Shown here piece after piece: positions 7,941-50,045 of a DNA stretch of 64,000 nucleotides (positions within the stretch are counted from its first letter, which is position 1; every line of letters starts with the position of its first letter). A program made the translations under genes and the position numbers. The notes under the pieces are model-generated. The model was not told the origin of the DNA and did no database searches. It worked only from the letters and a program-made list of their open reading frames with translations. The stretch covers positions 645,236-709,235 of the forward strand of contig OY764017.1 of the NCBI GenBank assembly GCA_963667795.1, written 5' to 3'. This DNA comes from Christensenellaceae bacterium (lineage in GTDB: Bacteria; Bacillota; Clostridia; Christensenellales; CAG-138).

Positions 7941-9278
7941 TCAATAACCCAACATTCTATCAATACGTTTTCCGGTCAAAGCATTAATGGTGCATAAGCT
8001 GTTATATGCAATAGATTCATCTTGCATCTGATTCCCATATACATTTGACATTGCAATATACTTTACGTCACCATTATCGTCGATATATTCTATATTCCCA
8101 TAGAATTCCCAAACCGGTACCGCCAAAATTGCATTATTGGATCCAACGATACAAGACATGCCCAGTTCGACACTGTCAATACGAACTGTTATTCTCTTTG
8201 GGTCGATATTAAGTGACGAATAAGTATATCGATTCTGTGAAACCGACATAAATTGGCTCATGGCATTTAAAGCTTCGTCCACGCTGATGATTTGACATGC
8301 ATCCGTTTCAATTACTATAGAACAGGGTTGCTGCCAAACAAACTCAACTAATCCATCGTTGTCAAAATACATTTTTATCATTTCCCAGAATACGGTTTCA
8401 GCATACTCCCTTCCGGCCGTTCCACCCTCAATTTGTTGACTGAAAACCTGCTTTTGCCCGCCGATATTTCTCATATAGATAAGTTCTATTCTTTCATCAA
8501 CTGGGTAATCCGATATTCCCGTTTGATTTGCTGTGCTTGCCACTAGTGTATACTCAGCAGAAGTATATCTTATTGCACTCAGCGTAAAGTCATCGGCCAA
8601 TTCTAACTTTTTCAGAATGTTCTCTGCCCGCTGCAAGGCATCTTCTTCAGATATCGGGCGAGGGGTGGGTTGTCCTTGCATGATATCCTTCCACCTGTAG
8701 TTGCTAATACGTATAAAGTTTTTTCTATTACCACCTCCTATTACGAGCACGGCTTTGTTCTTGCACCCGGTTTGGATTTTAGCCTCCTGTTCCGTCATTA
8801 CTTCGTCGATAGAAATGGCAGGTTCCGTTTCGGGTGCTGAACCAAGCGCATCCTGCATATTTGCAATAATGCCTTCGAGCATTTGTATATTATCGGCTGA
8901 CAACTTATCACGTACCGAATCCAATTGGTTGGTGTAAGTTTGGATATGTGAAGTGAGTTCGGGCCAGGTCTCACAAGCTTTGTAAAAGGTATGATTGTTT
9001 GAAAAGGCGTAGGCGACGTTATCGACAAAAGAAGCGTCAACCGATTGCCATGTAATGTTTCCCTGTAGGAATTCTCCGTTTGGTTCAACAACGGAAGCTG
9101 ATATTACAAGTTGAATGCCATCATCAAGCGCAACGCATTTCTTGTATTGGATATACCCATTTTCTTCTTCTGTTTCATAAGATTCTGACGGTTGTGCTTC
9201 CATTCCGGGCGTTGGCTGGCAAGCTCCCAATACACCCAGCAGTACTATAACAGTAATGAAGATTAAGATTTTTTTCAT
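7941..9278 (-). CDS. Lipoprotein, paralog family A (445 aa)
   Basis: Lipobox MKKILIFITVIVLLGVLGAC. C-terminal PVWEFYGNIEY...INALTGKRIDRMLGY parallels the 474-aa paralog. Confidence 0.75.
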   Translation of the reverse strand: MKKILIFITVIVLLGVLGACQPTPGMEAQPSESYETEEENGYIQYKKCVALDDGIQLVISASVVEPNGEFLQGNITWQSVDASFVDNVAYAFSNNHTFYKACETWPELTSHIQTYTNQLDSVRDKLSADNIQMLEGIIANMQDALGSAPETEPAISIDEVMTEQEAKIQTGCKNKAVLVIGGGNRKNFIRISNYRWKDIMQGQPTPRPISEEDALQRAENILKKLELADDFTLSAIRYTSAEYTLVASTANQTGISDYPVDERIELIYMRNIGGQKQVFSQQIEGGTAGREYAETVFWEMIKMYFDNDGLVEFVWQQPCSIVIETDACQIISVDEALNAMSQFMSVSQNRYTYSSLNIDPKRITVRIDSVELGMSCIVGSNNAILAVPVWEFYGNIEYIDDNGDVKYIAMSNVYGNQMQDESIAYNSLCTINALTGKRIDRMLGY

Positions 9279-28800: not shown

Positions 28801-31626
28801 GCGCATCAGCGTCAGGAAAATTGCGCTGACCGCCAGCCACGCCTGATAGGGCAGGAACGTGATATCCAGCAGCCCTTCCAGCAAGGCGGACTTCAGCGAA
28901 TCAACCACCGGTATATACCGCTTGGTGCGTGCATTTCGCTGAAACACCGATAACACACTGCTCAAAAGCGTGCCAATCAACGGCATCATGATCGTCAACA
29001 GCAGAAATCCAAGCCAAACCAATATACTCCCCGGCAGCACGGTCATCGCCAACAGCAAAAGCAGCATCAGGGCGGGAGTGCGCAGGCTGCGCCTGAGATT
29101 ATCGTAGATTTTCCAGCGGGAAAGAGCCGAAAGCGGATTCTTGATCCAGCTGCCGTCAGCACTTCGCACCATTGGCAGCACGTAGGAAAGCAACTGCCAG
29201 TCCCCGCGTACCCAGCGCCGCTGTCTCGCGGCATAGGCTTGATATTGCGCAGGAAACCCGTCCACTAGGGTCAGGTCAGAGGCGAGTCCTGTTCTGAGGT
29301 AGGAGCCTTCCAATAAATCGTGACTAAGCACCGTATTCTCCGGAATGGTCCCCTTAAGTACCGTTTGAAATACTGCAAGATCATAGATCCCTTTTCCCGT
29401 GAAGATCCCTTCGCCGAACATATCCTGATACACATCCGACAGCGCACCGGAATAAGGATCGATTGCATCCTGATTGGTGAAAATGCGCGAAAACAGTGTC
29501 CCGCTCGCGCATTCAATGTCGATATGTGGCTGAATCAAGCCGTATCCTTTTGTAACGACACGGCGTGTTTCGTCAACAAACGGACGGTTCAACGGGTGCG
29601 CCATGGTACCAATCAGGCGTTTCGCCATCCCGATCGGCAAAATCGTCTCACTGTCCAGTGTAATCACGTAACGAATCTTTCCGAATGGCGGTGTTTTGGA
29701 CGATGCGCAGACGAAGCTCGTATCCGGAGAGCCCTGAATAAGATCGTTGAACTCCATAATCGCTCCGCGCTTGCGTTCCCAACCGATCCAGATATCGTTA
29801 CTCGCGTTATATTGTCGTTCCCGATGGAAGAAGAAGAATATCTCCTTTCCTCCGGCATACCTATCATTGAGCGCTTTGATCCCCGCCAGCGCGGATGCCG
29901 TAATGCTCTCGTCCGCGGGCAAATGCGCTCTGCATGCATCACCAAATGCTCCAATGATGGCAAAATACAGATTTCGCTCGCGGTTTCGAAGATAATGCTC
30001 CTCCATGGTCTGCAAAACCTCCGCAACGCGGTCTTCACTTGGCAGCAAGGTTGGAATGATGACCATCGTACTCAATTCATCCGGTATTCCATCCTTCAAC
30101 TCCAGCTTTGGAAGAAGCTTCGGTTTCGTGATTCGACCGACCATGCGGTTCACAAGATAAACCGCTATCTCCGAAGCCGGTATCAACAACACAAGCGTAC
30201 AAAGAAAGCCATAGAATACTTTCCCGCTTGACGCGGCATGTGCGCCATAGATCGTGCCAAGAAGAACAATCGCAGTGGAGATCACCGAAATTGCAAGAAG
30301 GTACAATAGCCAGCGTGTCTTTCTGTGATCGCTTTCGGCACTTCTTCGCTTTTTCCCCGTCAACTGGCTCTTTAACTGGCTCACACCTTCGTCTATGAGG
30401 TAATATCCAACATGGCCCGTCCGTTCAGAATCCAGTCCTTTGCCGAACGCGTCCGCAGCCAGTTTCAGCGCTTCCCACGCCACATGTACTTCAGAGCAAC
30501 GGCAGTCTACCGCGATGCACGAGATCTGTTGTTTGTAGAAATCTCTCGTCGGTAAATCCATCGCTTGATAGACCTGATCGCCCCCTGTTCGAAGGACTTG
30601 TTCAATCCTGCTTGCGGCGGGTAACAACGCGCTCCAATCCAGCGATGAAAAATAGTGAAGCCGCTTCACGCTGTTCTCCATAGCGACCGTCGCGAGAGAT
30701 TGCGCGCTGTGCTCCATCTGCGTCACTTCATCCGCAGACGTTCCATGTTTTGATAGAACTGCTTCCAAAATCGCAATCGCGCCCGAAGGGTTTCGCTCCG
30801 CGCGCCGCAGTCGAAAACAGAGATGCTCGGCAAAGGTGAGATCGACCCCGGCACCTGTTAAAATGCTTGACGCAAGCTGCGCATGAAATTTTGCCAACGT
30901 TTTAGAAGTTTCCTTCATAAACACGTCAAAAACCGCGTCTGCTCTCTTGCGGCTTTTTACCTCGGCAATGATGTCTTCACAAAGGCAGCGAATATCTTCC
31001 AGATTCACGAGGCGCAGTACAATCGGCAGGGCTCGTACTTCCCGTTCAAGCAGAATATTCTTTGCCTGATAGGCAGAAAAATAGGATGTGAGCGCAGCTT
31101 CATCCAGCGTGTTGCTACTTCCCGCAATCAGCTCGACCGCCATCACATAAACCCGCGCATACCCTTTGTAAGGGCCAGATTGCAGCACAGGCAGGCGTAG
31201 ATAGTCCTTTCTTTTTAATTCCGTCCGCAGCACACGATACTGTGAGTCGATGATATAGAAATTATCGAGCAACCACTCCGCCGAAGCCGGCACGTCGATC
31301 TTACTCATCAGGTTTTCGTTGAGGTCTTCACAAGCCGTTTGAATGCATTTAAAATTGCTCTTCAGCCGCGAAAGCGGCCAGTCAAGCGAGCTTCTTTTTT
31401 TTGACGCCAGATGCGCAATAGTCGCCTGCCGCGCGTAGGTATGCGGGTCTTCTATGGAAAGCGCCGCGACGCGTTTGCTTCCGACTCGTTCCCGCGCAAA
31501 AATCAATATGATCATGAAAAAAAATAAAAAGGCACCTGCTAATACTAAGATGCCGATGAGTAACGTATTCACGTATTCCAAGCTCCTTCCAAACCTATAT
31601 CCCAAACAAGGAATTGTTGCTGGCAT
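22867..31626 (-). CDS. Cyclic beta-1,2-glucan synthase-like giant glycosyltransferase/phosphorylase (2919 aa)
   Basis: A single 8.76-kb ORF. It has N-terminal TM segments, a glycosyltransferase region with VITLDSETILP, more TM segments, and a C-terminal GH94-like region (RFSDDFLWLPYV, GGGDWNDGMN). Size and domain order match ChvB/NdvB/Cgs proteins. Confidence 0.8.
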   Translation of the reverse strand: MPATIPCLGYRFGRSLEYVNTLLIGILVLAGAFLFFFMIILIFARERVGSKRVAALSIEDPHTYARQATIAHLASKKRSSLDWPLSRLKSNFKCIQTACEDLNENLMSKIDVPASAEWLLDNFYIIDSQYRVLRTELKRKDYLRLPVLQSGPYKGYARVYVMAVELIAGSSNTLDEAALTSYFSAYQAKNILLEREVRALPIVLRLVNLEDIRCLCEDIIAEVKSRKRADAVFDVFMKETSKTLAKFHAQLASSILTGAGVDLTFAEHLCFRLRRAERNPSGAIAILEAVLSKHGTSADEVTQMEHSAQSLATVAMENSVKRLHYFSSLDWSALLPAASRIEQVLRTGGDQVYQAMDLPTRDFYKQQISCIAVDCRCSEVHVAWEALKLAADAFGKGLDSERTGHVGYYLIDEGVSQLKSQLTGKKRRSAESDHRKTRWLLYLLAISVISTAIVLLGTIYGAHAASSGKVFYGFLCTLVLLIPASEIAVYLVNRMVGRITKPKLLPKLELKDGIPDELSTMVIIPTLLPSEDRVAEVLQTMEEHYLRNRERNLYFAIIGAFGDACRAHLPADESITASALAGIKALNDRYAGGKEIFFFFHRERQYNASNDIWIGWERKRGAIMEFNDLIQGSPDTSFVCASSKTPPFGKIRYVITLDSETILPIGMAKRLIGTMAHPLNRPFVDETRRVVTKGYGLIQPHIDIECASGTLFSRIFTNQDAIDPYSGALSDVYQDMFGEGIFTGKGIYDLAVFQTVLKGTIPENTVLSHDLLEGSYLRTGLASDLTLVDGFPAQYQAYAARQRRWVRGDWQLLSYVLPMVRSADGSWIKNPLSALSRWKIYDNLRRSLRTPALMLLLLLAMTVLPGSILVWLGFLLLTIMMPLIGTLLSSVLSVFQRNARTKRYIPVVDSLKSALLEGLLDITFLPYQAWLAVSAIFLTLMRVWVTKKNLLEWVTSADSEAKPLATPAGYVRFMQAPIWQSLACIAAVASMGAWDRVLMLLPLILLWVVSPVIAFAISKETIVTSGLNLADKAELENTARKTWRYFEEFSAEDTHFLAPDNYQLEPYKGVAARTSPTNIGFGLLAALTARDMGFIGTIELIGLVENTIATIEGLPKWNGHLFNWYDTVTLKPLNPVYVSTVDSGNLTGYLMTLAQGLQEYLDRPLIDIGFFDGLAVTVSCGEKERYIAWRTRILQAKETVASLGAGSISGMRVMHDALVDWLEELGAASLEGDVWLEKARLQMQGQLTVLADYFSSALLPRALPEAADTPEDLGRLLDLLGGNCAFGELPVRQRAASALAGRMRDPKIGAEVQPSPEVTPWLSGVQIALSQSAERSLREVLRCTALIDRIRTINAAVQFRPLYNEKKKLFSIGYNLEDNKLTNSYYDLLASEARLASYIAIANGEIPASHWFSMGRTLTVQGRYKGLVSWTGTMFEYLMPLLIMKSYSNTLLDEACSFAVRSQMKFAKKRSMPWGMSESAYNSLDKRNDYQYKAIGIPWLGLKRGLNEDSVVAPYATFLALLVQPDEALKNIARLKEEHMDGAYGFYEAADFTKDRLYFEPRRVIIKSFMAHHQGMSLLVINEYLNHNRMQERFAKNPAVRAYRHLLQEKVPANIVMTKAVSEKVSLPSFKFSKQELPVRMFRRPNTGLPRVHMLSNGNYSVMLTDAGTGYSKNKVVAITRWQEDSTLDRFGTFLYLRDMESGKQWSSAYAPLNQMPDSYEVEFADDKAIYRRTDGEVDSKTEVFVATNDNVEIRKVTLENHSDATKTIEITSYCEVVLAPRAADQAHMAFSNLFVETDFHAQSGMITAKRRPRSDKEMEVCLGAHLVRNSDQNEEIEFETDRAQFIGRGNDASCPQALRSSQPLSGTVGAVLDPIISLRTRVVIEPGKTAALALVMITAGDKEALLAIAKRYETMRDIELSAHHAYERSRIETKYRDFKASEITLYLNMLSHLLFLSPARRINSDRISQNHRGQSALWRYGISGDLPILLVALTAETQIPLLHEAIKAYEYWGVMDISADMIVIVSEEAAYTSPLRDLAVGIMESYKRYNTMLRPDEIVLLNRKDITQEDYALLISASRIFLQGGNGTMEAQLSGIAKRYLPEQTLFSKETAVYPPDILQHQELLYDNGIGGFRPDGKEYCIRLEHEHTPAPWINVIANPNFGFIVSESGSGYTWRENSHEFRLTPWSNDAVSDPPGEVLYLCDKDTGKIFTPTALPIRDEGIYHIRHGFGYSVFSHSCLGISQTLTQFVPEKDALKISLLVLKNETNEIRRLSATYYVRPVLGVSDQITAMHIQTSMSESGALLMRNPYNEDFPGRICYMNCSVEEHTVTGDRKEFFGTGGLKSPDCLKRDCLSGELGIGLDPCGAMQINLELQPGEERTVVFLLGAADGEGEIARACDAYLDAQRVQDTLQAVADSWDAALSKVRVITPDAALNLLQNGWLLYQVIACRLWARTGFYQSGGAFGFRDQLQDILAVAATNPALARGQILRHAKHQFVEGDVQHWWHEPMGSGVRTRFSDDFLWLPYVTAEYTRISGDDSILLEMVPFLQGNQLTEQEHERYERATTSTEEATLYEHCLRAIRRGLSFGVHGLPLMGGGDWNDGMNAVGEKGLGESVWLGWFLSDVLGEFSSVCDAWGDHTLASTLRETRKTLLKAVEEHAWDGGWYRRAYFDDGTALGSIRNVDCKIDSIAQSWSVLSGGGEAERTRKAMQSLEDYLVNRDEGLIKLMTPPFDKGKSEPGYIKGYVPGVRENGGQYTHAAAWAIIAFAKLGGGDKALALYDLINPIHHTSSYRGYAKYKTEPYALPADVYAAWPHMGRGGWSWYTGAAGWLYRAGLESILGIQKEGDYLIINPGIPAGWQSYSVEYHFDSATYHITVQNPNRVQTGVVSMTMDGENLTGAVALKDDAREHWIDVLMG

Positions 31627-32207: not shown

Positions 32208-34760
32208 ATGCGTAAAATGGTTGATCAAGCGGGAAGGCCCGAAAACCTGATAGGGTTTGCACGATTCTCCGTGCTATATAATGATGCGGGTCAGCCGTGT
32301 GATTGTGTTTTCACGCAGGTGAATCCGGCGTTTGAAACGCTTTTCTCGCTCAAGCGCATGGACGTTATCGGTAAAACACTAAGCGAGGTTCTTCCTCCAG
32401 TGACAAATCTGAAGGATAGCCAATTACCATTTTTGATTGAACAAGTGATCCGCGAGGGTAGCGCCGAACTGGAACAGTATTGCGGTAAGATTCAACACCT
32501 GTTCAGCGTGTTCACTTTTTCCAGTGACCCAAAATCGATCACCGCAATATTCTCCGATCGAACAGAGCAAAACAAAGCGCCACAAGCACTCAAGAACGCA
32601 AACGAACGATTCATGCAGTTGTTTAACGCAGGATTCGACGCAGCCATTATCGTGCGTAAGAGCGATGGTTGTATTGTAGAAGTCAATTCTAGTTTTCTTT
32701 CCCTTTCGCGATTCTCGCGCAAAGAATTAGTCGGTAAAAGCATCGCCGATCTAGGACTGTTTACACGCTCGAACGCGACCAGCGGCGAGCCTGAGCAAGT
32801 CATCGATATCGACAAGCTAGACAATATGGAAGTTTCCATCCGCCATAAAAACGGGCGTACATTTGACGGACTTATCTCTGCCAAAGCGCTTTTTCTTTGG
32901 GGCAGTAAGCATATTTGCATCTATCTTCGAGATATATCCAATCGCAAGCAATCTGATGAAGCCTTGGTTGTTTCCGAAAAAAATTATAGGCGCTTGTTTG
33001 AAGCGGCAAAGGACGGCATTCTGATTTTGGACGCGGAAACCGGCGAGATCACAAGCGTGAATCCGTTCTTAATCAACCTGTTGGGATATAGTGAAGAGGA
33101 GTTTCTTAAAAAATGCATCTGGGACTTAGGGGTATTTAAAGATATCCTTGCAAACCGGGAAAATTTTTTGGAGTTGCAAAGCAAGGAGTATATCCGCTAC
33201 GAAAACCTTCCATTGGAAACAGCCGATGGGCGCAACGTCCACGTTGAGTTTGTCAGCAACGTATATCTGGTTGGCAATCGAAAGGTGATTCAATGCAATA
33301 TCCGCGACATCACGGAGCGAAAGTTGCTGGAGGAAGCGCTCGAAAAAGAAAAGCGCATGTTCGAAATTACTCTGATCTCCGTGGGCGATGGTGTGATTTC
33401 CTGTGACAACAAAGGCCGTATCATCTTTCTCAACAGAGCTGCCGAGCTGCTTACGGAATGGACGCTTGATGAAGCGAGAAATGAAACGCTGGAAAAAGTG
33501 TTTACCATCGTCGACGAGTTCTCTCGCAGGGTGAGCCAAAACATCATTGATGATGCGATTAAAAACGAGAATGTTTTTCAACAGGGACGCCATATCTTGC
33601 TCATCTCCAAATACGGCATTGAGCGTTCGGTGGAATACACCGTAGCGCCAATCATCGAGGACAACGGAGCCGTGGTTGGCAGTGTGCTCGTATTTCGCGA
33701 TTTTTCAGATAAGCGCCGTGAAGAGAAGAAAATCGAATTCCTCAGCTATCACGATCAGCTCACCGGGCTTTACAACCGTCGCTTCTATGAAGAGGAGCTC
33801 AAACGGCTGGACACAAAGCGGAATCTACCGCTCGCCATCGTCATGGGCGATGTCAACGGACTCAAGTTGGTCAATGATTCCTTCGGTCATCTTGCCGGAG
33901 ATGAATTGCTCATGAAAGTCGCCTCTGTTATGCAAAAGGGTTGCCGGACAGATGATATTCTGGCGCGGCTTGGCGGCGACGAGTTTGTGATCATTCTTCC
34001 CCAGACCGATGCAAAAGGTGCAGAATCCGCGATTCAGCGTATCAAGGATTTACTGAATATTGAAAAGGTTGGAGCAATCGATCTTTCCGTTTCTTTTGGA
34101 TACGAAATCAAGAAGCAGGCAGACGAAAACATGCAGGAAATCTTTAAAAATGCGGAAGATCATCTCTACCGACACAAGCTTTACGAAAGCCTGAGTATGC
34201 GAAGTCAAACGATCAATCTCGTTCTGAATACACTTTTTGAAAAGAATCAACGGGAAATGATGCACTCCAAGCGTGTTGGCGAGATAGCTGAACTCATCGC
34301 AGTCAAATTGGGTCTGAGCGAGGAGGACGTTCGAAACATGAAAACCGCCGGATCAATGCACGACATCGGAAAAATCGGCATTGACGAAGCTATACTCAAC
34401 AAGCCCTCACGACTGACGGACTTCGAACGGGAGGAGATGCAGCGACATCCAGAAATCGGATATCGCATCTTAAGTTCGGTTAGTGAATTTTCGGAGATTG
34501 CCGTGTGCATTCTGGAGCATCACGAGCGCTGGGATGGTACCGGATACCCGCGCGGATTGAAGGGTAACGAAATCTGCCTGGAAGCTCGAATTCTCGCTAT
34601 TGCAGATGCGTATGATGCGATGACCAGCGATAGAACCTACCACCCTGCGCTCAACGCCCAGGAAGCGCTTGCAGAGATTCACGCATGCGAAGGCGCGCAG
34701 TTTGATCCAGATATCGTTCGGCTGTTTACCGTAGGGGTTCTTGGAGAAACAAGAGTATAG
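32208..34760 (+). CDS. PAS-PAS-PAS-GGDEF-HD-GYP signalling protein (c-di-GMP turnover)
   Basis: Repeated PAS-like modules, GGDEF motif RLGGDEFVIILP, and HD-GYP motifs HDIGKIGI and HHERWDGTGYP. Confidence 0.85.
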   Translation: MRKMVDQAGRPENLIGFARFSVLYNDAGQPCDCVFTQVNPAFETLFSLKRMDVIGKTLSEVLPPVTNLKDSQLPFLIEQVIREGSAELEQYCGKIQHLFSVFTFSSDPKSITAIFSDRTEQNKAPQALKNANERFMQLFNAGFDAAIIVRKSDGCIVEVNSSFLSLSRFSRKELVGKSIADLGLFTRSNATSGEPEQVIDIDKLDNMEVSIRHKNGRTFDGLISAKALFLWGSKHICIYLRDISNRKQSDEALVVSEKNYRRLFEAAKDGILILDAETGEITSVNPFLINLLGYSEEEFLKKCIWDLGVFKDILANRENFLELQSKEYIRYENLPLETADGRNVHVEFVSNVYLVGNRKVIQCNIRDITERKLLEEALEKEKRMFEITLISVGDGVISCDNKGRIIFLNRAAELLTEWTLDEARNETLEKVFTIVDEFSRRVSQNIIDDAIKNENVFQQGRHILLISKYGIERSVEYTVAPIIEDNGAVVGSVLVFRDFSDKRREEKKIEFLSYHDQLTGLYNRRFYEEELKRLDTKRNLPLAIVMGDVNGLKLVNDSFGHLAGDELLMKVASVMQKGCRTDDILARLGGDEFVIILPQTDAKGAESAIQRIKDLLNIEKVGAIDLSVSFGYEIKKQADENMQEIFKNAEDHLYRHKLYESLSMRSQTINLVLNTLFEKNQREMMHSKRVGEIAELIAVKLGLSEEDVRNMKTAGSMHDIGKIGIDEAILNKPSRLTDFEREEMQRHPEIGYRILSSVSEFSEIAVCILEHHERWDGTGYPRGLKGNEICLEARILAIADAYDAMTSDRTYHPALNAQEALAEIHACEGAQFDPDIVRLFTVGVLGETRV

Positions 34761-35249: not shown

Positions 35250-36590
35250 GGTACTGCCAAGAATTATGCGCAAAAAGGAACGAGGCCGTAGGGTTGACGT
35301 TCAGCTGACGGCAGATTCGACGTCTGCCTGAATTTCCAGATGCTTCATGTTCATGTACTTCTTGTTCCCCCATTGCGTGCCTGCGACATGTCGCAGGCGT
35401 GCGCAAACCAGCATGAGTGCTGAATTGCCGTCCGGAAATGTACCGACCACCCGCGTTCTGCGACGAATCTCCCGGTTCAACCGTTCGATCACGTTGTTGG
35501 TGCGGATGCGCAGCCAGTGCTCGTATGGGAATTCCATATAGGTCAAAGTCTCCTCAATGCCGTTTTCCACCTTTTTAGCCGCTTCTTTGAGCTTCATAGC
35601 CCGCAGAGCTTCTACAACTTGAACAGCCTTCTCACGGGTGGCAGTTTTGCTCTCCTGTGCATGAATCGCTTTGAGCATTCTGGCCACCAGCTTCATCTTG
35701 CTGCGCGGTGTGGCCGAGAATACATTGCGATAGAAGTGGACGGTGCAACGCTGGTACTTTGCTTGCGGGAACACCTCTGCGGCGGCTTCCAGCATACCGA
35801 GACATTTATCGCCGACGATCAGGCGCACGCCGTCCAGCCCGCGCCCTTTGAGCCATTGCAGGAACGCCGTCCAGCTGGCTTTGTCTTCCTTCATTCCCTC
35901 GGCGGCGCCGATCACCTCGCGGTATCCATCCTCGTTGACGCCTAATGCAACAAGAATACTCACGTTCTCAAACTCGCCGCCCCAATTCCGCCTCAGGTAG
36001 ATCCCGTCCACGTAGACATACGGATATGTTCCGCCGTGCAAAGGCCTGTTGCGCCATGCTTCAATGTGAACGTAAGCTTTCTTGTTTAGCTCGCTGATGG
36101 TGGCGGGAGATACTTTGGTACCCCATAAGGCTTCGATAATATCCTCAACCCGGCGCACCGACACTCCGGCCAGATACATTTCAATCAGAGCTTCCTCAAC
36201 GCTGCTTTCCCGTCGGCGATACCGTTCGATGATCGCTGTTTCAAACGGGATTCCCTTCAGCCGCGGCATTTTCAGCGTCACGTCCCCGCTGGTTGTGGTC
36301 AGATTCCGGTTGTAGTGTCCGCTCCGATATCCCTGCCGGGCTTCGGTTCGCTCATATTTGGCTGCCTGGGTCAGCTCCTGTGCTTCCTTTTCCAGCAGGT
36401 CGTTCAGCGTTTCTTCCACGCTGCCGCGCACCAGTTCTTTCAATTCGTCCTTGATTGCGCCTTCATTTAACTGTATGATTTTCTTGGACATATGGTTAGC
36501 CTCCTTTGTGTGAATGGTTCTTGCAAACCTATTCTATCATTTGGCCTCTATATGTCCTTTTTTAATTTGCGCAACTTATTGTACGTTATC
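35250..36590 (-). mobile_element. Intact IS256-family insertion sequence (1341 bp)
   Basis: 8-bp target duplication GCGTGCCC (35242-35249 and 36591-36598). Ends are GGTACTGCCAAGAATTATGCGCAAAA and the reverse complement of the other end, GATAACGTACAATAAGTTGCGCAAAT. Confidence 0.85.
35301..36491 (-). CDS. IS256-family (Mutator-type) transposase
   Basis: 396 aa: MSKKIIQLNEGAIKDELKELVRGSVEETLNDLLEKEA...VYVDGIYLRRNWGG...RTNNVIERLNREIRRR. Confidence 0.9.
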   Translation of the reverse strand: MSKKIIQLNEGAIKDELKELVRGSVEETLNDLLEKEAQELTQAAKYERTEARQGYRSGHYNRNLTTTSGDVTLKMPRLKGIPFETAIIERYRRRESSVEEALIEMYLAGVSVRRVEDIIEALWGTKVSPATISELNKKAYVHIEAWRNRPLHGGTYPYVYVDGIYLRRNWGGEFENVSILVALGVNEDGYREVIGAAEGMKEDKASWTAFLQWLKGRGLDGVRLIVGDKCLGMLEAAAEVFPQAKYQRCTVHFYRNVFSATPRSKMKLVARMLKAIHAQESKTATREKAVQVVEALRAMKLKEAAKKVENGIEETLTYMEFPYEHWLRIRTNNVIERLNREIRRRTRVVGTFPDGNSALMLVCARLRHVAGTQWGNKKYMNMKHLEIQADVESAVS

Positions 36591-40606: not shown

Positions 40607-40945
40607 TTAAAGCGCCGCCAGCCGTTTGAGCATCTCGGATGCGAGCGTAAACAGCTGTTCGTGATTAGCCTTCAGCATATCAACATCTTTCGCGTAAATG
40701 CTGCCGCCCTGATTCGCGCGTTTCGCGAGTTGATTCAGGTTCGTTCCGTACTTTCTCAGCTGCACAATCAGCTCGCGAATCTCAGGAAGATCGAGCCGCA
40801 CCGAATATCCGTCGATCGCCATTTTGCGAAAGTACGCTTCCTGATTCCGTATGCCAAGCTGTTCCATCTTTTGTAAAATCAACTCCTGTTCACGCGCCGT
40901 GACGCGAAATAGCATTGCAATATTGCGTGTGCGTTTTTCTTTCAT
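40607..40945 (-). CDS. mobC: MobC-family relaxosome accessory protein
   Basis: MKEKRTRNIAMLFRVTAREQELILQKMEQLGIRNQEAYFRKMAIDGY...NLNQLAKRAN. ATG at 40943-40945 lies 7 nt after GGAGG and overlaps the upstream stop. Confidence 0.8.
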   Translation of the reverse strand: MKEKRTRNIAMLFRVTAREQELILQKMEQLGIRNQEAYFRKMAIDGYSVRLDLPEIRELIVQLRKYGTNLNQLAKRANQGGSIYAKDVDMLKANHEQLFTLASEMLKRLAAL

Positions 40946-41972
40946 CAACGTTCCTCCAATCCGGCGCAGCGGTTCCGCCCATACACAGGGATATGCTCCT
41001 GCATTTTTGAAAAAGCGCGGAGATTGTCCTTGATGGGCGGTTTTTCATCTTCGATATCGTCTTCCAACTCCTTTTCGGATGTTTTTTCTTGTGCGGAATC
41101 ATCCAGCACGCTATCGCTATCACCGCGCCCCTTGTCGATGTTCAGCAACACATCCAGTTCAGCAAGACGAACTGATTTTTCGCTGAGTTCCTGCTCCTGT
41201 GGAAACGGCTGCTTGACTTCTTTTTCGGCCGCCTGCCGTTGCTGTTCGAGGTCGGCGAGCGTTTGCTTGACGTTTTCCAACCGCTCCGGAATAGCGCGCA
41301 GCGTATTGTCGATCCTCTGGATATTGCCGAACAGATCGTCGCCGAGTTCCACAGTGTGCGAAAGCGTGCCTTTGAGCGTAAGACGAAACGATTTTAATAA
41401 TGCGTCGAAGGATAAAAAAAGATCGAAACCGCAATAGGCTCCGATCTGTTTTGATTCCGGGGAGGTCTGCGCTTTGCACGCCGCAAGCAGCGTCGCACCT
41501 GCGTCTTTCTTTTCGGCATAGGCAACCCCGCTTAGCTCAATTCCGGAGAATTCGTTGCCAGCGTGTACTGCGAATCGCTCTATGTCGGACAGATACCCAG
41601 TGATTCGATCCTGAGCACGCCTAATCTCCTGCGGGAAACGTTTGAGCAGCGCGTCCTCCAACGCGTATTTCTGCGTCAGGTAGTTGGCGCGCACGAGCTT
41701 GAGCTTGGCAACGTCAACTTCCAGATCCATCTTCTCTTTGATCCGCTCATCGCCGGTGGCCAGCGCTTTGACCTCGGCGTATGTCAGCGCTGTTTCGTCG
41801 ACGTCCTCACAGGAACGCACTGGACTTTTGCTGGTCATGATCTGGCCGATGAACTTCTGCTTGTTTTCCAGCGTCGCCCACATATACGCGTCGAAGGTTC
41901 CCTCAGTCACGTACCGGTAAATGTGCACGGCGGAACAGGTGTTGCCCTGCCGGATCGCGCGGCCTTCGCGCT
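40945..41972 (-). CDS. Polyvalent ArdC-like/methyltransferase/SNF2-helicase protein, exon 2
   Basis: Begins (C)AG CGC GAA GGC, giving QREGRAIRQGN (helicase motif VI), immediately after the intron 3' end. Exon 1 plus exon 2 totals 6588 nt, which is 2195 codons plus a stop, in frame. Confidence 0.8.
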
Positions 41973-44485
41973 GTAGGCTAAGTACCCACCGCCTTGCCAC
42001 ATTGCTGTGGTAGGTTTGCAAGCACTCGCCCCCGAACCGTACATACAACTCTCGCTGTATACGGCTCTCCACTAACATTATCAATCTAACTTACCATAGT
42101 GTATTTTTCGATGACACTCATGACAGACTGCAATAGTTTTTCGCCGCCGTGCTATCATAAGCCTTTCCCAATATTTCTTACCTTGCAAGTCTTTTAGCTT
42201 TCGAACATGGTGCATTTCTAATGGCACATTTTCTGCACCGCAGATTTCACACCTTTTGGCTTTAAGCCTGTCCAATAAACTGGTACCGCTAAGATATTTA
42301 AGGTCATTTGGGAGCGTATCACATCTAGCTGTTCTGGCTGTAGTTTTACGCTTGAAGCCTTCATTGTAGAACAAACGAACCCTTTCCTTGCCGTCTTTAC
42401 CTTTAAATCGAACGCCAAAATCTTTTCCGATACGGTATTTTTTAAGCAATTTCGGAATGTAGGTGCGGTATTTTGTGCAATAAGTTTTGTACATGCTGTA
42501 TCCCATCATGTATTTGAAGCTGTTAATTATTGAGCTGTTGTTGGCAATAGAGTAATAATTGTAGAACCCACGAATTTCAGAATTATACTTGTCTAAAATC
42601 TCAAGATCATCACTGTCCTTCATGCTGTACCGTGCTGTAGGTTTCCAGATTTCCTTTCCATCTACATACATCAATTTAATGGCTTTTAGTTCCAACAGTT
42701 TTTTGCGGATGGTTTGGCTAGTTACCTTTAACACAACTCGTCCTACATAGTCTCTCTTGAGTCGTCCCATGTTGTCACGTTTGCTGAGATTGGACTTTCG
42801 AACATGAATGTCATAACCAAGGAATTTTGCAGGCTTTTGAGCGTTTGTTATTAACGTTTTTTCGCCTGACAATTCAAGCAAAAGAGTCTCAGCCATAAAA
42901 CTCTTGATATCCTCCTTCGCCCGCTTGCAATCATATTTATTCCCAATGATGCCAACAAGAAAATCATCGGCATATCGAACATATTGAAGCCGCCGATAAT
43001 CCTCATCCATAGCAACGCCATATGGGACGTTGTTTCTGGTTTTTTCAATTTCCCTTATTTGCTCAACTATTTGCTCTTTTACAACCTCATCCACACAGGC
43101 ATTCAGCTTTTTAACCAAATTGCCACGCTGGACTTCAAGTTTACGGTATTCGGAATTCCTTTTTCGCTCCTTACCTTTATTGAACTTGTCCTTATACTTT
43201 TGCATAAATTTATCGAACTCGTCCAAATAGATGTTTGCTAGTATCGGGCTAATAATCCCACCTTGTGGTGTGCCGCTGTATGTTTTGTGGTACTGCCAAT
43301 CTTCCAAATATCCTGCATTCAGAAATTTACGTATAAGCCTTAGAAAACGATTATCAGAGATGCGTTTTTCAAGTATTCGAATCATAACATCATGATTGAT
43401 GTTATCAAAGAATCCTTTTATGTCGCCCTCGACAAACCACTTAACGCCAGTAAAATTGTTCTTTACCTGAATTAGTGCAGTATGACAACTTTTATTAGGT
43501 CGGAACCCATGTGAAGTGTTTTCAAATGAACCTTCATAAATTGCTTCTAAAATCATTCGAAGCACTTCCTGTACAAGTTTGTCGTTGAAAGATGGTATAC
43601 CCAGTGGTCTCTTCTTACCATTCTTTTTAGGGATATATACCCTTCTGGATGGCATAGGTTGGTAACTTTCGTTTTTTAATGCTTCAATCAGGGTTTCGAT
43701 ACGTTTCAGACTCATACCATCAATGGTCTGTTCATCTGAACCTTTCGTCATGTTCCCTTCATTTGCATAGATTTTTTGATAAGCTACCGCATACATTTCC
43801 CGATTAAAAAGAACCCTATACAACCGTTCGTAGTGATACGATAAGTCTTTACTATGGTTTGATAAACTTTTTAACACTTTTTCGGGATTTCTCAAGTGTC
43901 TCACACACCTTCCTAAAATTATGTTAATGAATATTAGCTGCTTCCCTTCGCCATGTACAAGGCTTTCCCTTGCTCGGACTACTACGGAAGCTCCGTTACC
44001 ATGCCGGATATTCAAGGGTCTACGCCCTATAGCCATTGCTGACGTTCCAGTTTAGGTAATCCCCGTTTAGCTGCATAACAACTTAGCACGATAGATTGTC
44101 GGATACGACTTCCGTCCTTTTATGCTTATTGCATATGTGCCGCAACTTGTCTCTGCCGTTTTACCTGAACAGCGGTAAAACGGTGTTGCAGTATGACGAT
44201 TTTAGCCATCTTACGTCATAGTCCCGACACAGACCACTCAGACTATCGTTCAACCAGTAAGGGTTTTATCCTCATATCTATCTTTTCATCTCCCCATTCA
44301 GTCGCAGCCTGATAGCTGGCTGACTCATGGCTTTACCGACGTGCTTTGTTCCCTGATGTTTGGTTTCCCTCACAGGTCAGTCGGTTGATGACAGGCACAC
44401 CGTTTTCTCCTCCTTTCTCGGTGTTTAGACACTTGCCTGCTACCTTGCTAAAGGTAGGTTTGTTATACGGCCTCTACGGGCGCAC
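41973..44485 (-). mobile_element. Group II intron (2513 nt) with LtrA-like intron-encoded protein
   Basis: 5' end GTGCGCCCG at 44485. Domain V GAGCCGTATACAGCGAGAGTTGTATGTACGGTTC at 42067-42034. 3' end ...GGTGGGTACTTAGCCTAC at 41973. Splicing it out restores ...WRPADLE-QREGRAIRQGN. Confidence 0.85.
42081..43895 (-). CDS. Group II intron reverse transcriptase/maturase/HNH endonuclease
   Basis: RT motif YVRYADDFLVG, a maturase domain, and C-terminal CEICG...HHVRKLKDL...CHECHRKIHYG. Start assigned to the TTG at 43893-43895, downstream of AGGAAGG, by analogy with the length of LtrA. The longer track ORF to 44036 is probably intron RNA. Confidence 0.8.
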   Translation of the reverse strand: MRNPEKVLKSLSNHSKDLSYHYERLYRVLFNREMYAVAYQKIYANEGNMTKGSDEQTIDGMSLKRIETLIEALKNESYQPMPSRRVYIPKKNGKKRPLGIPSFNDKLVQEVLRMILEAIYEGSFENTSHGFRPNKSCHTALIQVKNNFTGVKWFVEGDIKGFFDNINHDVMIRILEKRISDNRFLRLIRKFLNAGYLEDWQYHKTYSGTPQGGIISPILANIYLDEFDKFMQKYKDKFNKGKERKRNSEYRKLEVQRGNLVKKLNACVDEVVKEQIVEQIREIEKTRNNVPYGVAMDEDYRRLQYVRYADDFLVGIIGNKYDCKRAKEDIKSFMAETLLLELSGEKTLITNAQKPAKFLGYDIHVRKSNLSKRDNMGRLKRDYVGRVVLKVTSQTIRKKLLELKAIKLMYVDGKEIWKPTARYSMKDSDDLEILDKYNSEIRGFYNYYSIANNSSIINSFKYMMGYSMYKTYCTKYRTYIPKLLKKYRIGKDFGVRFKGKDGKERVRLFYNEGFKRKTTARTARCDTLPNDLKYLSGTSLLDRLKAKRCEICGAENVPLEMHHVRKLKDLQGKKYWERLMIARRRKTIAVCHECHRKIHYGKLD

Positions 44486-47400
44486 GTTCCAGATCGGCAG
44501 GTCGCCACGGAATATCCAGATGGTGCTCGGCGTACAGAAGCCGCTGCACGTTCGTTCCGCTACCCATCTTGGCCGTCGATCCGAGCAGGATGCGCACCTG
44601 CCCGGAGCGCACTTTTGCAAACAGCTCGGCCTTTTTCGTCTCGGTGTTCGCGTCATGGATAAATGCGATTTCCTCTGTCGGAACACCGAGCTCGATCAGC
44701 TTCTTTTTCAGATCGTCGTATACGCTGAATTCACGATCGCCCTTCGGCGTCGCCAGGTCGCAGAAGACAAGCTGCGTGAACCGCTCCGCCTGCGATTCGC
44801 TCCAGAGGCGGAATACATTGCCGAGGCACACGCCGACCTTGCCGTTCGGATCGTCCGGCAGCGCAGGATTCAGTAGCCGCTGATCGAGCGCGAGCTTTCG
44901 CCCGTCGTTCGTGATCGTCAGCATATTGTCCACGGAGGGGTCGATCATTTGATTTCGCACGTGCTCCGCACGCTTGGCCAGCCCCGCGACGAGCTCCCTT
45001 TGAATCTCGCTCGGTTCGAGTCGGATGTTGTGATACTCGACCTCCGGCACCGGAAGGCGAAGCATGTCCGCGGTCTTGATGTCCGCCACTTCCTTGAACA
45101 TGGCGATCAGTTCCGGTAAGTTGAAAAAACGCGCAAAGCGCGTCCTCGCCCGATAGCCCGTGCCTTCCGGTGCGAGCTCGATGCTCGTCACCGTTTCGCC
45201 GAACGTTGAAGCCCATGCGTCGAAATGCTGCAATCCGTTTCGGCGTAGCGTACCGTATTGCAGATAGCGCTGCATGGTGTATAGCTCTGTCATGGAATTG
45301 CTCACCGGCGTGCCGGTTGCGAACACCACGCCGCGCCCGCCCATGAGCTCGTCCATGTAGCGGCATTTCATGAACAGGTCGGCGGACTTCTGCGCCTCGG
45401 TCTGCGAGATGCCGGCGACGTTTCGCATCTTCGTAAAGACTGCGAGATTCTTAAAGCTGTGCGCCTCGTCGACGAACAGTCGATCCACGCCAAGTTCCTC
45501 AAAGGTGATCACGTCGTCCTTACGCTCGGTGCTGTTGAGCTTGTCCAGCTTGAGCTTAATCGATTTTCGCGCGCGCTCCATTTGCTTGATCGTGAAGCGT
45601 TCCGCCCGTGCGCTCTTGGCTTCGGAAATACCGTCGAGCACTTCGTCCAGCTGTTCCTGCAGATGTGCGCGCTGGCGTTCGAGGGACATCGGAATCTTCT
45701 CGAACTGCGAATGCCCGATGATGACCGCGTCATAATCGCCGGTTGCGATCCGGCTGCAGAATGTCCTGCGACGCGTCTTCTCAAAATCGCGACGGGTCGT
45801 AACTAGAATGTTGGAGGAAGGATAGAGTTGCAAAAACTCCGCCGCCCACTGCTCTGTGAGATGGTTCGGTACAACGAACAGCGATTTTTGGCAAAGGCCG
45901 AGCCGCTTTAGCTCCATTGCCGCGGCGGCCATTGCGAATGTTTTGCCTGCGCCGACGACGTGCGCCAGCAGCGCATTGCCGCCGTAGAGCATGCGTGCGA
46001 CGGAGTCCTCCTGATGTGGGCGCAACGTGATCTCCGGGTTCATGCCGACGAATCGGATATGGCTGCCGTCGTACTCGCGCGGGCGGGTGCTGTTGAAGCG
46101 CTCGTTGTATAGCGCCGTCAACTGCTCACGTCGCGCCGCGTCTTTCCAGATCCACTGCGTGAACACATCTTTGATAAGCTGTTGTTTTTGCTGTGCAAGA
46201 ACTGTCTCTTTTTTGTTCAGCACGCGTTGTTCCTTGCCTTCCGCATCGCGCACGGTATCGAAGATACGGACGTCGCGCAGGTTCAGCGTATCTTCCAGAA
46301 TCCTGTAGCCGCTTGCACGCGATGTGCCGTATGTTACGGTTGCCGGGACGCTGCCATAGTCGGAGGATTTGTTCGTCACCGTCCAGTTCGCGGTGTAGCC
46401 GGAAAACTGGACGTGCATTCGCGAACGCGCCCAGCCGCCGGTCTGGAACAGCTCGTACATGAATTCCTCAACGATCTCCGGCGGAACCCACGTAGAACCC
46501 AGCCGCACGTCGATCTCGCTGGCTGTCAGCTCGGCAGGCTGCGCCTTTTCAAGTGCGGCGATGTTGCTATCGACCTGGGAAAGCACGGACGCATCCACGC
46601 CATGACCGGACAACATTTCGCGAAGCTGGCGTACCTGCCGGAGCTTTTCGCGTACGTTGCCGGAAAGATACTCGTCCGCCGTTACCATCGGGAACTGAGC
46701 CGGATCGAAAAACGCCCATGCGATGTTTGCCGGGACAAGCTCACCGTAATCGCGAAAGATCACGCCGGTCAGGCCGGCGACGATCTGCTCCTCGCTCATA
46801 CCAGTCAGCTCGGCCATGTACGGAAGATCCACGCGCGCCTTTTCGCCCAGCGAAACCGCCAGCGCCTCGCTGGGCGTATCCACGTGCGTGATGTCGATCT
46901 GCTGCCGGATTGTGCGCTTGGTGAACATGTCGGCCTTGCCCGCAAGGTTGCCTTCCTCGTCCAACACCTCCAAGGAACAGAGCAGGCAATAGGACGAATC
47001 GTCCGAAAACGCCATGTTGTTGCCGCGGCTGTTGATCAGGCCGTATTTCTTTGCAAACGCATCATACAGCTCGTTCAGGCGTGCTTGCTCCGCGACAATC
47101 TCTGTGTCAGGATGCCCGTTCAGCTGAAGTTCGATCAATCGGTGGGTGCAATCCCGCAGCTCGATCATACCGCGAATGCGGCTGCCCGCCGTCACGGACG
47201 CATCCACTTTGCTCATGCGGCTGTTCTCGCGATAGTAGAGCTCGCCGTCGACGATCGTGAAGCTGAAATTTCGCACGTTTGGATCAGCCGGAATCGAGTC
47301 GCTGTCGGCTTCCTCCAGATCGTCTACCGGTGTGAATTCCGTAAGTTCTGCATGGAGGCCGGACAATGCGTCATGAAGCTGGTCGGCAAGCACCGCGCCA

Positions 47401-50045
47401 TCGACGGGCTTTACCGTGCATTCCTGTCTGCCGTACTGCGTACTTTCGGTGGTCAGCGCGCCCAGAATCATATCCGGATTGTCCACGAAATATTGATTGA
47501 CCGTAAGGCCATCGGGCGTTGTGCCGAGGTGCACCCAGTCCGGTTCGATTTCGATTGGCCGGTCACGCTTTTGCAAGAACAGGATATCAGTCACGACCGT
47601 GGTACCAGCGTTGGCAAAAAACGCGTTGTTCGGCAGCCGCACCGCACCGATCAGGTCGCCCCGCTGCGCAAGATGCCTGCGCACAGACGGATTCTTTTTG
47701 TCCATGGTGCCGCTGGACGTAATGAACGCGACGATCCCGCCCGGACGCACCTTATCGAGCGCCTTGGCAAAAAAGTAATCGTGGATAAGAAAATGGTGCC
47801 GGTCGTATCGCTTGTCCGCAATGCCGTAGTCGCCGAACGGCACGTTGCCGACAGCTGCGTCGAAAAAACTGTCCGGCAGGTCGGCTTCCTCAAAGCCCTG
47901 TATTCTGATGTCGTTTTCGGGATATAGCAATTTGGCAATTCTGCCGGTAATGCTGTCGAGTTCTACGCCATAGAAGTGGCTGTCCGCCATGCCTTCCGGC
48001 ACCAAACCGAAGAAGTTGCCAATGCCGCAGGCTGGCTCGAGCACATTTCCCGTGGAAAACCCCATACGTTCCAACGCCGCATAGATCGCCTTGATCACGG
48101 TTGGGCTGGTGTAGTGCGCATTCAAAACGGATTCGCGCGCGGAAACGTATTCTTCATCCGTGAGCAGGTTTTGCAGCTCGCGGTATTCGTTTTGCCAGCC
48201 GGATTTCGTTTCATCGAACGCGTCCGTCAGTCCGCCCCAGCCGACGTAACGGGACAGGATTTCCTGCTCCTGTGACGTGGCTTGCCGTTGTTCGGATTCT
48301 ATCTGCCTTAGGGTACGGATGGCGGCAATATTCATAGCGTATTTTGTCTTGGGGCCGCCAACGCCAAGCGTATCGTCGGTAATGCGGAAGTTCTTTGCCG
48401 GAATAATCGGCTCGGGGGCCGTTTCACTTTCCTGTACGAGTTCGGTTGCTTCCGGTTCCAATCGTTCTTCATGCAGACCAGTTTTTTCCTCATCGGTAAG
48501 GTACCGATCGGATTGGATCAATTCACCAATGCGCCTGTGAACCTGCGTCCAAGTCAGCGTAATGCCCGGTGTATCGCCCCATTGCCGAAAATGCAGACCT
48601 TTGGCGTTGTAATCGATCAGGCCGGAAGCGCCGTTTTGATAGGCGACGGAGTGGCCGCCTGTGCCGTATTCCTGTTTCAGAAATTCAGCGGCTGCTTTTG
48701 TGTCCGGGCTGTTTTGATAGAATTCAAAGACGCGGGATTTCCCGTGCGCGAACCCGCTGCCGCGACAGAGCTCGTCGTCGATATCCTGTTGGGATAAAAA
48801 AGAAGCGGAGGCGTCGTGCGCTTCCGCTTCCAGCAGACTCAGCTGTTCGGATTCCGGGATTAGTTGTAGATCAGTTCCCGCAGGACCGCTTCTTCGGCTG
48901 CTGCCTTGAGGTTGTTCATCCGGCGCGCCCACTCCATCTGGTCGGTCGCCTTCAGTTGCTCGTTCACGCCCTCCGCGGCGGCCATTCGCGCCAGCGTCGC
49001 GTCGACCTGCTCCCGGGCCTGCCGGTCGATCTCTGCCAGGTGCGCCGTCAGCCTGCCCGACAGCAGAAGCGCACTGTACTGGCCCTTGCGATGCTCCTTG
49101 AGGAAGCGCCTCCGCATCCTCGCGTATTTGCCCGGCGCTTCGCTCGGCTGTTCCTCCAGCGTCAGGTTCGGCATCCAATAATCCCCGTTCTGCCGATATG
49201 TCAGTTCCATGTTCGTCGCTCCTTTCAGATTCAGATTGATCACCCTCAGCATCATTGTCCCTTTCTTTCGTCTCGGTTGCAATGTTGTCGCGCGTCTGCC
49301 GTTCGATGGAACGGACGCTTCGTTCGATCTGCCGCAGGATCATCTGTGAAATATCGCCGGTGGCGCAGCCGAGTTGCGAGATCACCAGCGGCGTATCGAA
49401 GTACTGCACGTCAATGAAGTTGCTTGCGGCCAGCACCATTCGCGGGTCGATGCCGACACGCGTGAGAACGCCGTATGCCACGCCGCCATAGACGGTATGG
49501 TAAAATCTCCCCTGGAGCGCTTCACCGGTCAGCCCGGATAGTTCGCTACCGTCCATGATCAGTGGCAAAACGTCGGCATAATCTCCGATATTGTCGGTCA
49601 CGACGTTGCGAACCACGGAGAGAAGCTGTTGAGCAAAGTTGTCCTCCGGCTCGATTTCACCAAATCGGTTTGTCAATTCTTCGATGATCTGTTGCCGGTC
49701 TTCCGGTTGCACTTCCCACAATTGGACGGGAATGTTGGAGCGCGTGTTCGTGTCCGAAACGTCGAACACATACTTCAATCGCAACCGGTCGCCGGAATCG
49801 TCGATCAGTGCGATTCCCTTCGCGCCTTTGTTGACCCAGCGCTTGAACACGCTGTTCCAAAGCTCGATCGGTGCGCAGGCACGTGCATCCGAGCGCTGAG
49901 CGTAGATCAGAAGCTGATCGTAGAATGGATATTTATAGAGCCATGCGGTGGTATCGAGATAGCGCATCCAATTTTCGCGCGAACTTGTAATGCGCATCAT
50001 GGTGGCTTCCGACAATGCCTTCATGGTTTCCAGTTTTGTGGCCAA
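44486..50045 (-). CDS. Polyvalent ArdC-like/methyltransferase/SNF2-helicase protein, exon 1
   Basis: N-terminal ArdC-like ssDNA-binding-type segment (YPFYDQLLIYAQRSDA...KGAKGIALI). MTase motifs VLEPACGIGNFFG and GNVPFG. Helicase motif I AHVVGAGKTF and motif II LFVDEAHSFKN. The frame ends in ...HHLDIPWRPADLE at the intron. Confidence 0.8.
48860..49210 (-). CDS. tnpV: TnpV-like protein (116 aa), nested out of frame inside exon 1 of the polyvalent gene
   Basis: ATG at 49208-49210 lies 8 nt after AAAGGAG. Translates MELTYRQNGDYWMPNLTLEEQPSEAPGKYARMRRRFLKEHRKGQYSALLLSGRLTAHLAEIDRQAREQVDATLARMAAAEGVNEQLKATDQMEWARRMNNLKAAAEEAVLRELIYN, which closely follows the TnpV pattern as I recall it. Confidence 0.7.
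   Translation of the reverse strand: MELTYRQNGDYWMPNLTLEEQPSEAPGKYARMRRRFLKEHRKGQYSALLLSGRLTAHLAEIDRQAREQVDATLARMAAAEGVNEQLKATDQMEWARRMNNLKAAAEEAVLRELIYN

Follow-up and report, generated by a model that had tools for sequence, protein, structure and literature searches.

A conserved tnpV gene nested out of frame within the polyvalent-protein gene of conjugative elements from gut Clostridia: a probable dual-coding region

Can a stretch of bacterial DNA that links two domains of one large protein also be a complete gene of its own, read in another frame? This question is raised by a 64,000-nucleotide (nt) stretch of a Christensenellaceae genome (contig OY764017.1, positions 645,236 to 709,235; hereafter the window), in which a polyvalent-protein gene, encoding an N-terminal domain followed by methylase and helicase domains, contains an out-of-frame open reading frame (ORF) of the tnpV type. 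A preliminary description, made from the letters of the window, had reported the nested ORF and offered two readings of it: an overprinted gene, or an inserted tnpV that was domesticated as a linker while keeping its own expression signal. Comparison of more than 100 related loci suggests that the arrangement very probably represents a genuine pair of same-strand genes, one nested in the other, and thus a dual-coding region from which TnpV would be produced by internal initiation and which appears to be fixed in the polyvalent-protein family of conjugative elements of gut Clostridia.

Two open frames over one stretch of DNA

On the minus strand, the tnpV ORF extends from an ATG at 49210 to a TAA at 48862..48860, encodes 116 amino acids (aa), and lies wholly inside the host gene. 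The offset between the two starts, (50045-49210) mod 3, is 1; tnpV is therefore shifted by one nucleotide, into the +1 frame relative to the host gene, and spans host codons 279-395. It is preceded by the Shine-Dalgarno (SD) sequence AAAGGAG, which is separated from the ATG by an 8-nt spacer and is read as Glu-Arg-Ser in the host frame. ORF, start signal, and frame thus agree with the preliminary description. In the ORF listing of the window, the host ORF runs from 50045 to 44463 (1860 aa), and its first exon, which encodes the N-terminal domain as well as an Eco57I-type methylase and an SNF2/ResIII helicase recognized by Pfam matches, forms one open frame through the tnpV region.

The assignment to the TnpV family, for which a profile search had been proposed, was borne out over the full length of the protein. 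The window TnpV matched Pfam PF14198 with E=4.8e-41 and 139.6 bits (cut-off 27), covering profile positions 1-111 of 111, and phrog_24764 with E=8e-38, a PHROGs family whose function is not assigned. The homologues found numbered 473, mostly of 114-117 aa. An exact-sequence look-up of the window TnpV returned no record, and a search of NCBIfam with TnpV returned nothing. The AlphaFold2 (AF2) model of TnpV, a beta-hairpin followed by helices, has a mean predicted local distance difference test score (pLDDT) of 87.8, and on the strength of this model we are confident that TnpV is a compact folded protein, not a chance ORF.

The host frame reads the same DNA as low-complexity sequence, as previously described, composed of G (16%), D (11%), A (11%), R (10%), E (9%), S (8%), and P (8%). 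In an AF2 model of host residues 1-520, residues 1-260 (pLDDT about 90) and 415-520 (about 87) form two confident domains, between which the stretch of residues 262-414 falls below 50 and holds the entire tnpV overlap. The linker is thus predicted to be disordered. The preliminary description had placed it between an ArdC-like N-terminal domain and a next recognizable domain. The latter part of this claim stood, the domain being modeled with confidence, whereas the ArdC label found little backing: searches with the N-terminal domain gave no match in Pfam (E<1), in NCBIfam, or among PDB sequences (profile search), and its best PDB fold match, ArdC of R388 (6sna_A), is a weak one (E=0.027, probability 1.00, target-normalized template modeling score 0.46). 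Because no sequence method backs ArdC membership, we take a possible likeness of this domain to ArdC-N as a lead rather than a finding.

Recurrence of the nested arrangement

The closest TnpV relatives with available DNA are two loci with about 90% identity (L001 and L002) and one with 63% identity on a 3.67-Mb contig (L003). All three loci combine an open tnpV with another uninterrupted frame, which leads from a homolog of the N-terminal domain across tnpV to the methylase/helicase part. Adding 80 genome loci from a search with a TnpV alignment gave a sample of 83 TnpV loci, in 35 of which a very long ORF encloses tnpV with the same frame offset as in the window; this host ORF typically extends about 850 nt upstream and more than 5 kb downstream. 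The other loci of this sample carry several stops in the host-equivalent frame. All 35 nested loci possess the N-terminal domain and the downstream domains, neither of which occurs in any free-standing locus.

A further 80 loci were fetched from metagenomes with an alignment of the N-terminal domain only; both samples comprise the best 80 of about 590 matches. Here, tnpV follows straight after the domain at every one of the 77 loci with enough downstream sequence, in the +1 frame at 76 of them, and it is fully contained in the host ORF at 73. Three of the remaining four loci end at contig ends; the fourth, L154, lies on a short contig and has a TAG immediately 5' of the tnpV ATG (1165-1173), leaving the N-terminal domain as a separate ORF. 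The 77th match, at L102 (1122-1349), is in frame 0, and both this locus and the protein P0203 switch midway from the host frame to the TnpV frame. These variants could be indels, sequencing errors, or genuine fusions. At the protein level, a hidden Markov model of the linker peptide that shadows tnpV found this peptide in 119 of 120 database homologues of host residues 1-520, a set to which P0203 belongs.

Pooling yielded 104 complete nested loci, all of which share the position of tnpV and its frame relative to the host. Clustering by TnpV identity divides them into 81 groups at 95% and 26 at 60%, with a minimum pairwise identity of 0.29. In every nested locus, the N-terminal domain (33-95% identity) ends at the tnpV ATG. 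The loci come from Oscillospiraceae, Lachnospiraceae, and other Clostridia and include the isolates Butyrivibrio hungatei DSM 14810 and [Clostridium] asparagiforme DSM 15981. The preliminary description had considered that homologs might reveal three ordinary consecutive genes with compensating frameshifts; instead, all 104 are nested alike in an open host ORF. The complete nested host ORFs (L003-L164) range from 229 to 2325 aa, their downstream part being highly variable and some domains repeated, and the constant part across these proteins is the N-terminal domain together with the tnpV-linker module. Thus, the nesting is not peculiar to the window and, as far as sequence comparison tells, appears to be a constant part of the whole polyvalent-protein family.

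Some copies were found on plasmid records. One nested module (8001-8345) lies almost unannotated on L084, a 335-kb plasmid-typed record (OY725857.1, Subdoligranulum variabile 'plasmid 23'). Among the plasmid hits, the Subdoligranulum hit H1 has no annotated features at the site, yet is nested; the others are free-standing tnpV genes or unannotated records.

Selection, translation signals, and rival explanations

Which of the two frames is maintained, and for what? For the TnpV frame, the median ratio of nonsynonymous to synonymous substitution rates (dN/dS) was 0.25 when nested genes were compared pairwise and 0.16 when free-standing ones were. Over the overlap, the host frame has an apparent dN/dS of 1.57, compared with 1.80 for the equivalent non-coding frame of free-standing tnpV, and residue-level purifying selection on the host frame was therefore not detected within the overlap. 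Variability per TnpV codon position in the nested loci decreases from position 3 (0.47) through position 1 (0.35) to position 2 (0.29), a normal coding pattern for the TnpV frame that is inverted for the host frame. Together, dN/dS and codon-position pattern imply that TnpV residues are conserved and linker residues are not. The embedding gene nevertheless appears to be needed, because it joins conserved domains on either side of the overlap.

Both frames are unbroken in all 104 nested loci, without a single host-frame stop over tnpV, whereas all 43 free-standing tnpV genes contain stops in the host-equivalent frame (1-10 each, mean 3.8). A stop can arise in the host frame only where a tnpV codon ends in T and the next one begins with AA, AG, or GA. 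At these risky third positions, T was found at 0 of 3588 sites in nested genes, compared with 988 of 8410 (11.7%) safe sites; in free-standing tnpV, 164 of 1343 risky positions carry T. Synonymous recoding of nested tnpV genes with host codon usage leads to an expected 3-9 stops and a median probability of an open frame, P(open), of 0.007. For the window gene, about 3.9 stops are expected and P(open) is 0.018, in line with the earlier judgment that such an open frame is unlikely by chance. Selection on the host frame over the overlap thus appears to act almost only against stop codons, and the frame-specific comparison that had been suggested separates purifying selection on TnpV from selection of the host frame for openness.

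Signals for separate translation are likewise retained. The tnpV start is ATG in 104/104 nested loci, and upstream of it the consensus GAAAGGAG reaches 80% conservation or more among them; the SD is of the GGAG type or better in 93 and spaced 8 nt from the ATG in 88 of the 104. The SD of free-standing tnpV genes is more variable. For the domains downstream of tnpV, the preliminary description had noted the lack of a start of their own. Indeed, no ATG, GTG, or TTG is present in the host frame of the window from -30 to +300 nt around the tnpV stop, and a start codon with SD within this range occurs in only 16/104 loci, so that no conserved restart was found. Production of the downstream domains thus probably depends on read-through.

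How well could other explanations account for these data? Assembly artefact and compositional by-product were tested and rejected on recurrence, on the stops in free-standing genes, and on codon permutation. A frame opened by an assembly indel or by GC-rich composition gains some plausibility from the high GC content at third positions of nested tnpV (0.70-0.93), which lowers the frequency of stops, but the arrangement is identical in more than 100 independent assemblies, complete genomes included. Moreover, free-standing tnpV genes with a GC content of up to 0.62 all have stops in the host-equivalent frame, and when the synonymous codons of each nested gene are shuffled within that gene, the median P(open) is 0.15; an artefact or chance therefore has a negligible probability. 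The locus might also consist of three genes, with the N-terminal domain, TnpV, and the methylase/helicase part made separately and the long frame never yielding one polypeptide. Gene callers do split the locus in this manner, and the TAG of L154 would fit such a layout. However, in the 104 loci the ORF of the N-terminal domain has no stop before or within tnpV, stop-generating T is absent from the risky positions, the upstream and downstream parts always share one frame, and a conserved restart codon with SD after tnpV is lacking, which makes three separate genes very unlikely.

Two further explanations accept the long polypeptide and differ on TnpV. It is conceivable that tnpV, once captured, now serves solely as a domesticated linker without being expressed, its frame being a fossil. 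This would agree with the need of the host frame for this stretch, but a fossil frame beneath a linker without residue constraint should decay fast, and it is intact in all 104 loci down to 29% identity. The ATG kept throughout, the SD kept in most loci, the low dN/dS, and the order of variability of the codon positions are likewise those of a gene in use, so that a relic is very unlikely. Alternatively, TnpV might be a C-terminal extension of the N-terminal domain, attached by programmed +1 frameshifting with the SD-like element as stimulator. SD-like elements stimulate frameshifting in prfB and dnaX, and the element of the nested loci is unusually well conserved. Against this, the nearest upstream stop in the TnpV frame is located 3-342 nt 5' of the ATG, at variable distances and within 3-6 nt in six loci, the ATG is invariant, and free-standing TnpV proteins begin at the same residue. 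Upstream stops so near and so variable in position argue against a fusion to the N-terminal domain, and we regard frameshifting as highly improbable.

We therefore favor internal initiation within a nested gene pair. Ribosomes starting at the polyvalent start codon would first translate the N-terminal domain, then cross the -1 shadow of tnpV, about 117 codons long, yielding the disordered spacer rich in G, D, A, R, E, S, and P, and continue into the methylase and helicase domains. Other ribosomes would bind at GAAAGGAG and, past the 8-nt spacer, initiate at the ATG of the +1 frame to produce the folded 116-aa TnpV. Selection would keep the amino acid sequence of TnpV and bar T before AA, AG, and GA codons on behalf of the host frame.

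Several observations weigh against this reading or limit its reach. Nested loci are interrelated; the counts thus do not represent independent events, and the 26 clusters at 60% identity are the better effective sample size. Members more distant than the matches sampled could differ. At high divergence, third positions differ less in nested than in free-standing tnpV (0.47 versus 0.62), and an extra constraint from the host frame or an effect of composition is therefore possible. In principle, conservation of the SD might reflect a need for Glu-Arg-Ser in the host protein instead of ribosome binding. At E<0.001, the AF2 model of TnpV had no match in PDB or BFVD. Finally, the TnpV tree is short and poorly resolved, too weak to settle the direction and number of nesting or escape events.

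As to origin, tnpV is likely the older gene and the linker the derived reading, the reverse of classical overprinting, because TnpV is folded, conserved, and found free-standing well beyond this family, whereas the linker is disordered and unconstrained. Of the two readings offered at the outset, a tnpV domesticated as a linker with its own signal hence fits better than gene overprinting. Plasmids of Campylobacter, Enterococcus, Streptococcus, and enterobacteria carry free-standing tnpV, and in Clostridia the free-standing gene adjoins serine recombinases, a tyrosine integrase, and relaxases. In a neighbor-joining TnpV tree, most nested copies form one large clade with some free-standing lineages among them, corresponding to about eight state changes. 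We envisage that tnpV was an older free-standing gene of mobilisable elements, and that loss of the stop codon from an upstream gene encoding the N-terminal domain let translation run through the shadow frame of tnpV and fused that gene to the downstream one. We lean, by a modest degree, toward a more extended view, in which two genes were fused via a third, still-working gene whose shadow frame serves as disordered spacer, the pair having since evolved jointly across gut Clostridia as an obligate dual-coding module; ribosome traffic on the polyvalent frame may then tune the internal synthesis of TnpV, coupling TnpV dosage to expression of the establishment protein.

Neighbors of individual free-standing tnpV genes include a large serine recombinase, a Mob_Pre relaxase, MobA/VirD2 relaxases, or a tyrosine integrase (L012, 4088-5968; L047, 4519-5964; L024, 4-1308; L029, 4505-5602 and 6863-8296). 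Such neighborhoods belong to small mobilisable elements and hint at a role in DNA processing or transfer. Because free-standing relatives adjoin relaxases and recombinases, this role is our best guess for TnpV, held with low confidence.

Setting of the locus and comparison with known systems

The coordinates of the features are compiled in Table 1. As the wording 'exon 1' in the preliminary description had implied, the polyvalent gene is interrupted by a group II intron, which lies outside the tnpV overlap but sets the structure of the host gene. Its ORF (44036..42081) encodes a reverse transcriptase/maturase/HNH protein with an RVT_1 match, and an Rfam RF00029 match is located at 42069..41973. 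The joined exons encode about 2195 aa, and in L004, an 89% identical homolog lacking the intron, both exons are joined to a gene of this length. A reverse transcriptase ORF also sits inside the helicase gene of L167.

Table 1. Features of the polyvalent-protein locus in the window
Feature	Position	Strand	Basis
Exon 1 of the polyvalent gene	44486..50045	minus	ORF listing; Pfam; boundary from alignment to intron-less L004
N-terminal domain of the host protein, aa 1-278	49212..50045	minus	Conserved upstream of tnpV; AF2
Shine-Dalgarno sequence AAAGGAG for tnpV	49219..49225	minus	Read from the sequence
tnpV, 116 codons and TAA	48860..49210	minus	PF14198, phrog_24764, AF2, dN/dS, ATG in 104/104
Host-frame linker, aa 262-414 (predicted disordered)	48804..49262	minus	AF2 pLDDT <50; core aa 279-395 is the tnpV shadow frame
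Group II intron in the helicase part of the host gene	41975..44485	minus	RVT_1/maturase/HNH ORF, RF00029; missing from L004
Exon 2 of the polyvalent gene	40945..41974	minus	Collinear with L004 9993-11614; ORF listing

The host gene is surrounded by a conjugation module comprising genes for the coupling protein T4CP, TrbL, a VirB4-like ATPase, an NlpC/P60 protein, and a CD1107-like protein. A Mutator-family (IS256-like) transposase gene (E=1e-108; 35301-36491, minus strand) adjoins sortase and SpaA genes downstream of the polyvalent gene. Past the conjugation genes, the window contains a gene for a PAS-GGDEF-HD protein (32208-34760, plus strand) and an ORF of 2919 aa (22867-31626, minus strand).

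The failure of annotation at these loci looks systematic. Automatic calls for L003 (9064-10843) and L165-L167 (8109-9369) include tnpV but let the large gene begin only behind it, so that the N-terminal domain of about 280 codons (about 850 nt) goes unannotated; other assemblies list the long ORF and omit tnpV. As gene callers are unable to represent the locus, many conjugative elements of the gut microbiome are probably mis-annotated at their polyvalent gene. Full-text literature searches for TnpV, PF14198, polyvalent proteins, and overlapping or nested genes, which left subscription journals aside, returned no title or abstract describing the nesting.

Bacteria have few long genes that lie wholly inside another gene on the same strand, and such cases are disputed; more than 100 loci with frame-specific selection could make tnpV a reference case. 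The locus suggests a route of gene fusion by reading through an occupied gene, and the requirement on a disordered linker would be minimal, namely, the absence of stop codons. TnpV, uncharacterized so far, would now be tied to expression of the entry/establishment gene of its element, which provides a lead on this protein.

The host protein carries the hallmarks of a polyvalent protein: it is large and multidomain, combines a methylase with an SNF2/ResIII helicase, and is encoded within a conjugation module. Its layout of an N-terminal 'header' domain followed by a methylase-helicase pair is that of polyvalent proteins as portrayed by Iyer et al. 2017 (PMC5512222), where a term search found no mention of TnpV, overlapping frames, or frameshifts. 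The linker in question here would be a second reading of another gene and not a plain spacer.

On the side of the embedded gene, the nearest relatives are the free-standing TnpV genes of Tn4451/Tn4453 and of MOBQ2 elements, which share PF14198, length, start residue, and residence on Firmicute mobile elements with the nested copies. A role of TnpV in excision was once postulated from its weak likeness to lambda Xis (PMC3158075). In Faecalibacterium elements, PF14198 was found in 16/24 MOBQ2 mobilisable elements, and a role in transfer was suggested (PMC12084326). Unlike nested tnpV, these genes stand alone beside recombinases or relaxases, and their host-equivalent frame contains 1-10 stops.

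A precedent for the architecture is comS in srfAB of Bacillus subtilis, a small out-of-frame gene on the same strand of a giant multidomain Firmicute gene, with its own internal start. The ComS protein has 46 aa, is lineage-restricted, belongs to no free-standing family, and is encoded within a catalytic module. Like comS, tnpV is embedded out of frame and on the same strand in a giant multidomain gene, with a predicted internal start of its own. Unlike comS, it encodes a 116-aa Pfam family that also exists free-standing, lies in the region of a putatively disordered linker, and is conserved across many genera.

Lambda Rz1 in Rz, as well as phiX174 B in A and E in D, are same-strand embedded out-of-frame genes with both products functional, and in such phage pairs the embedded gene is thought to be the newcomer, arisen by overprinting. 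Similarly, tnpV is a same-strand, fully embedded, out-of-frame gene of a mobile element. Nested genes in viruses have been reviewed (PMC8227390). In contrast to the phage genes, tnpV appears to be older and the embedding linker frame the newcomer, and the carrier is a bacterial conjugative element, not a virus. If the more extended view set out above holds true, few same-strand nested gene pairs in bacteria would be as deep or as well supported as tnpV and its host, which would also provide a clear case in which the long gene, and not the short one, is the overprinted newcomer.

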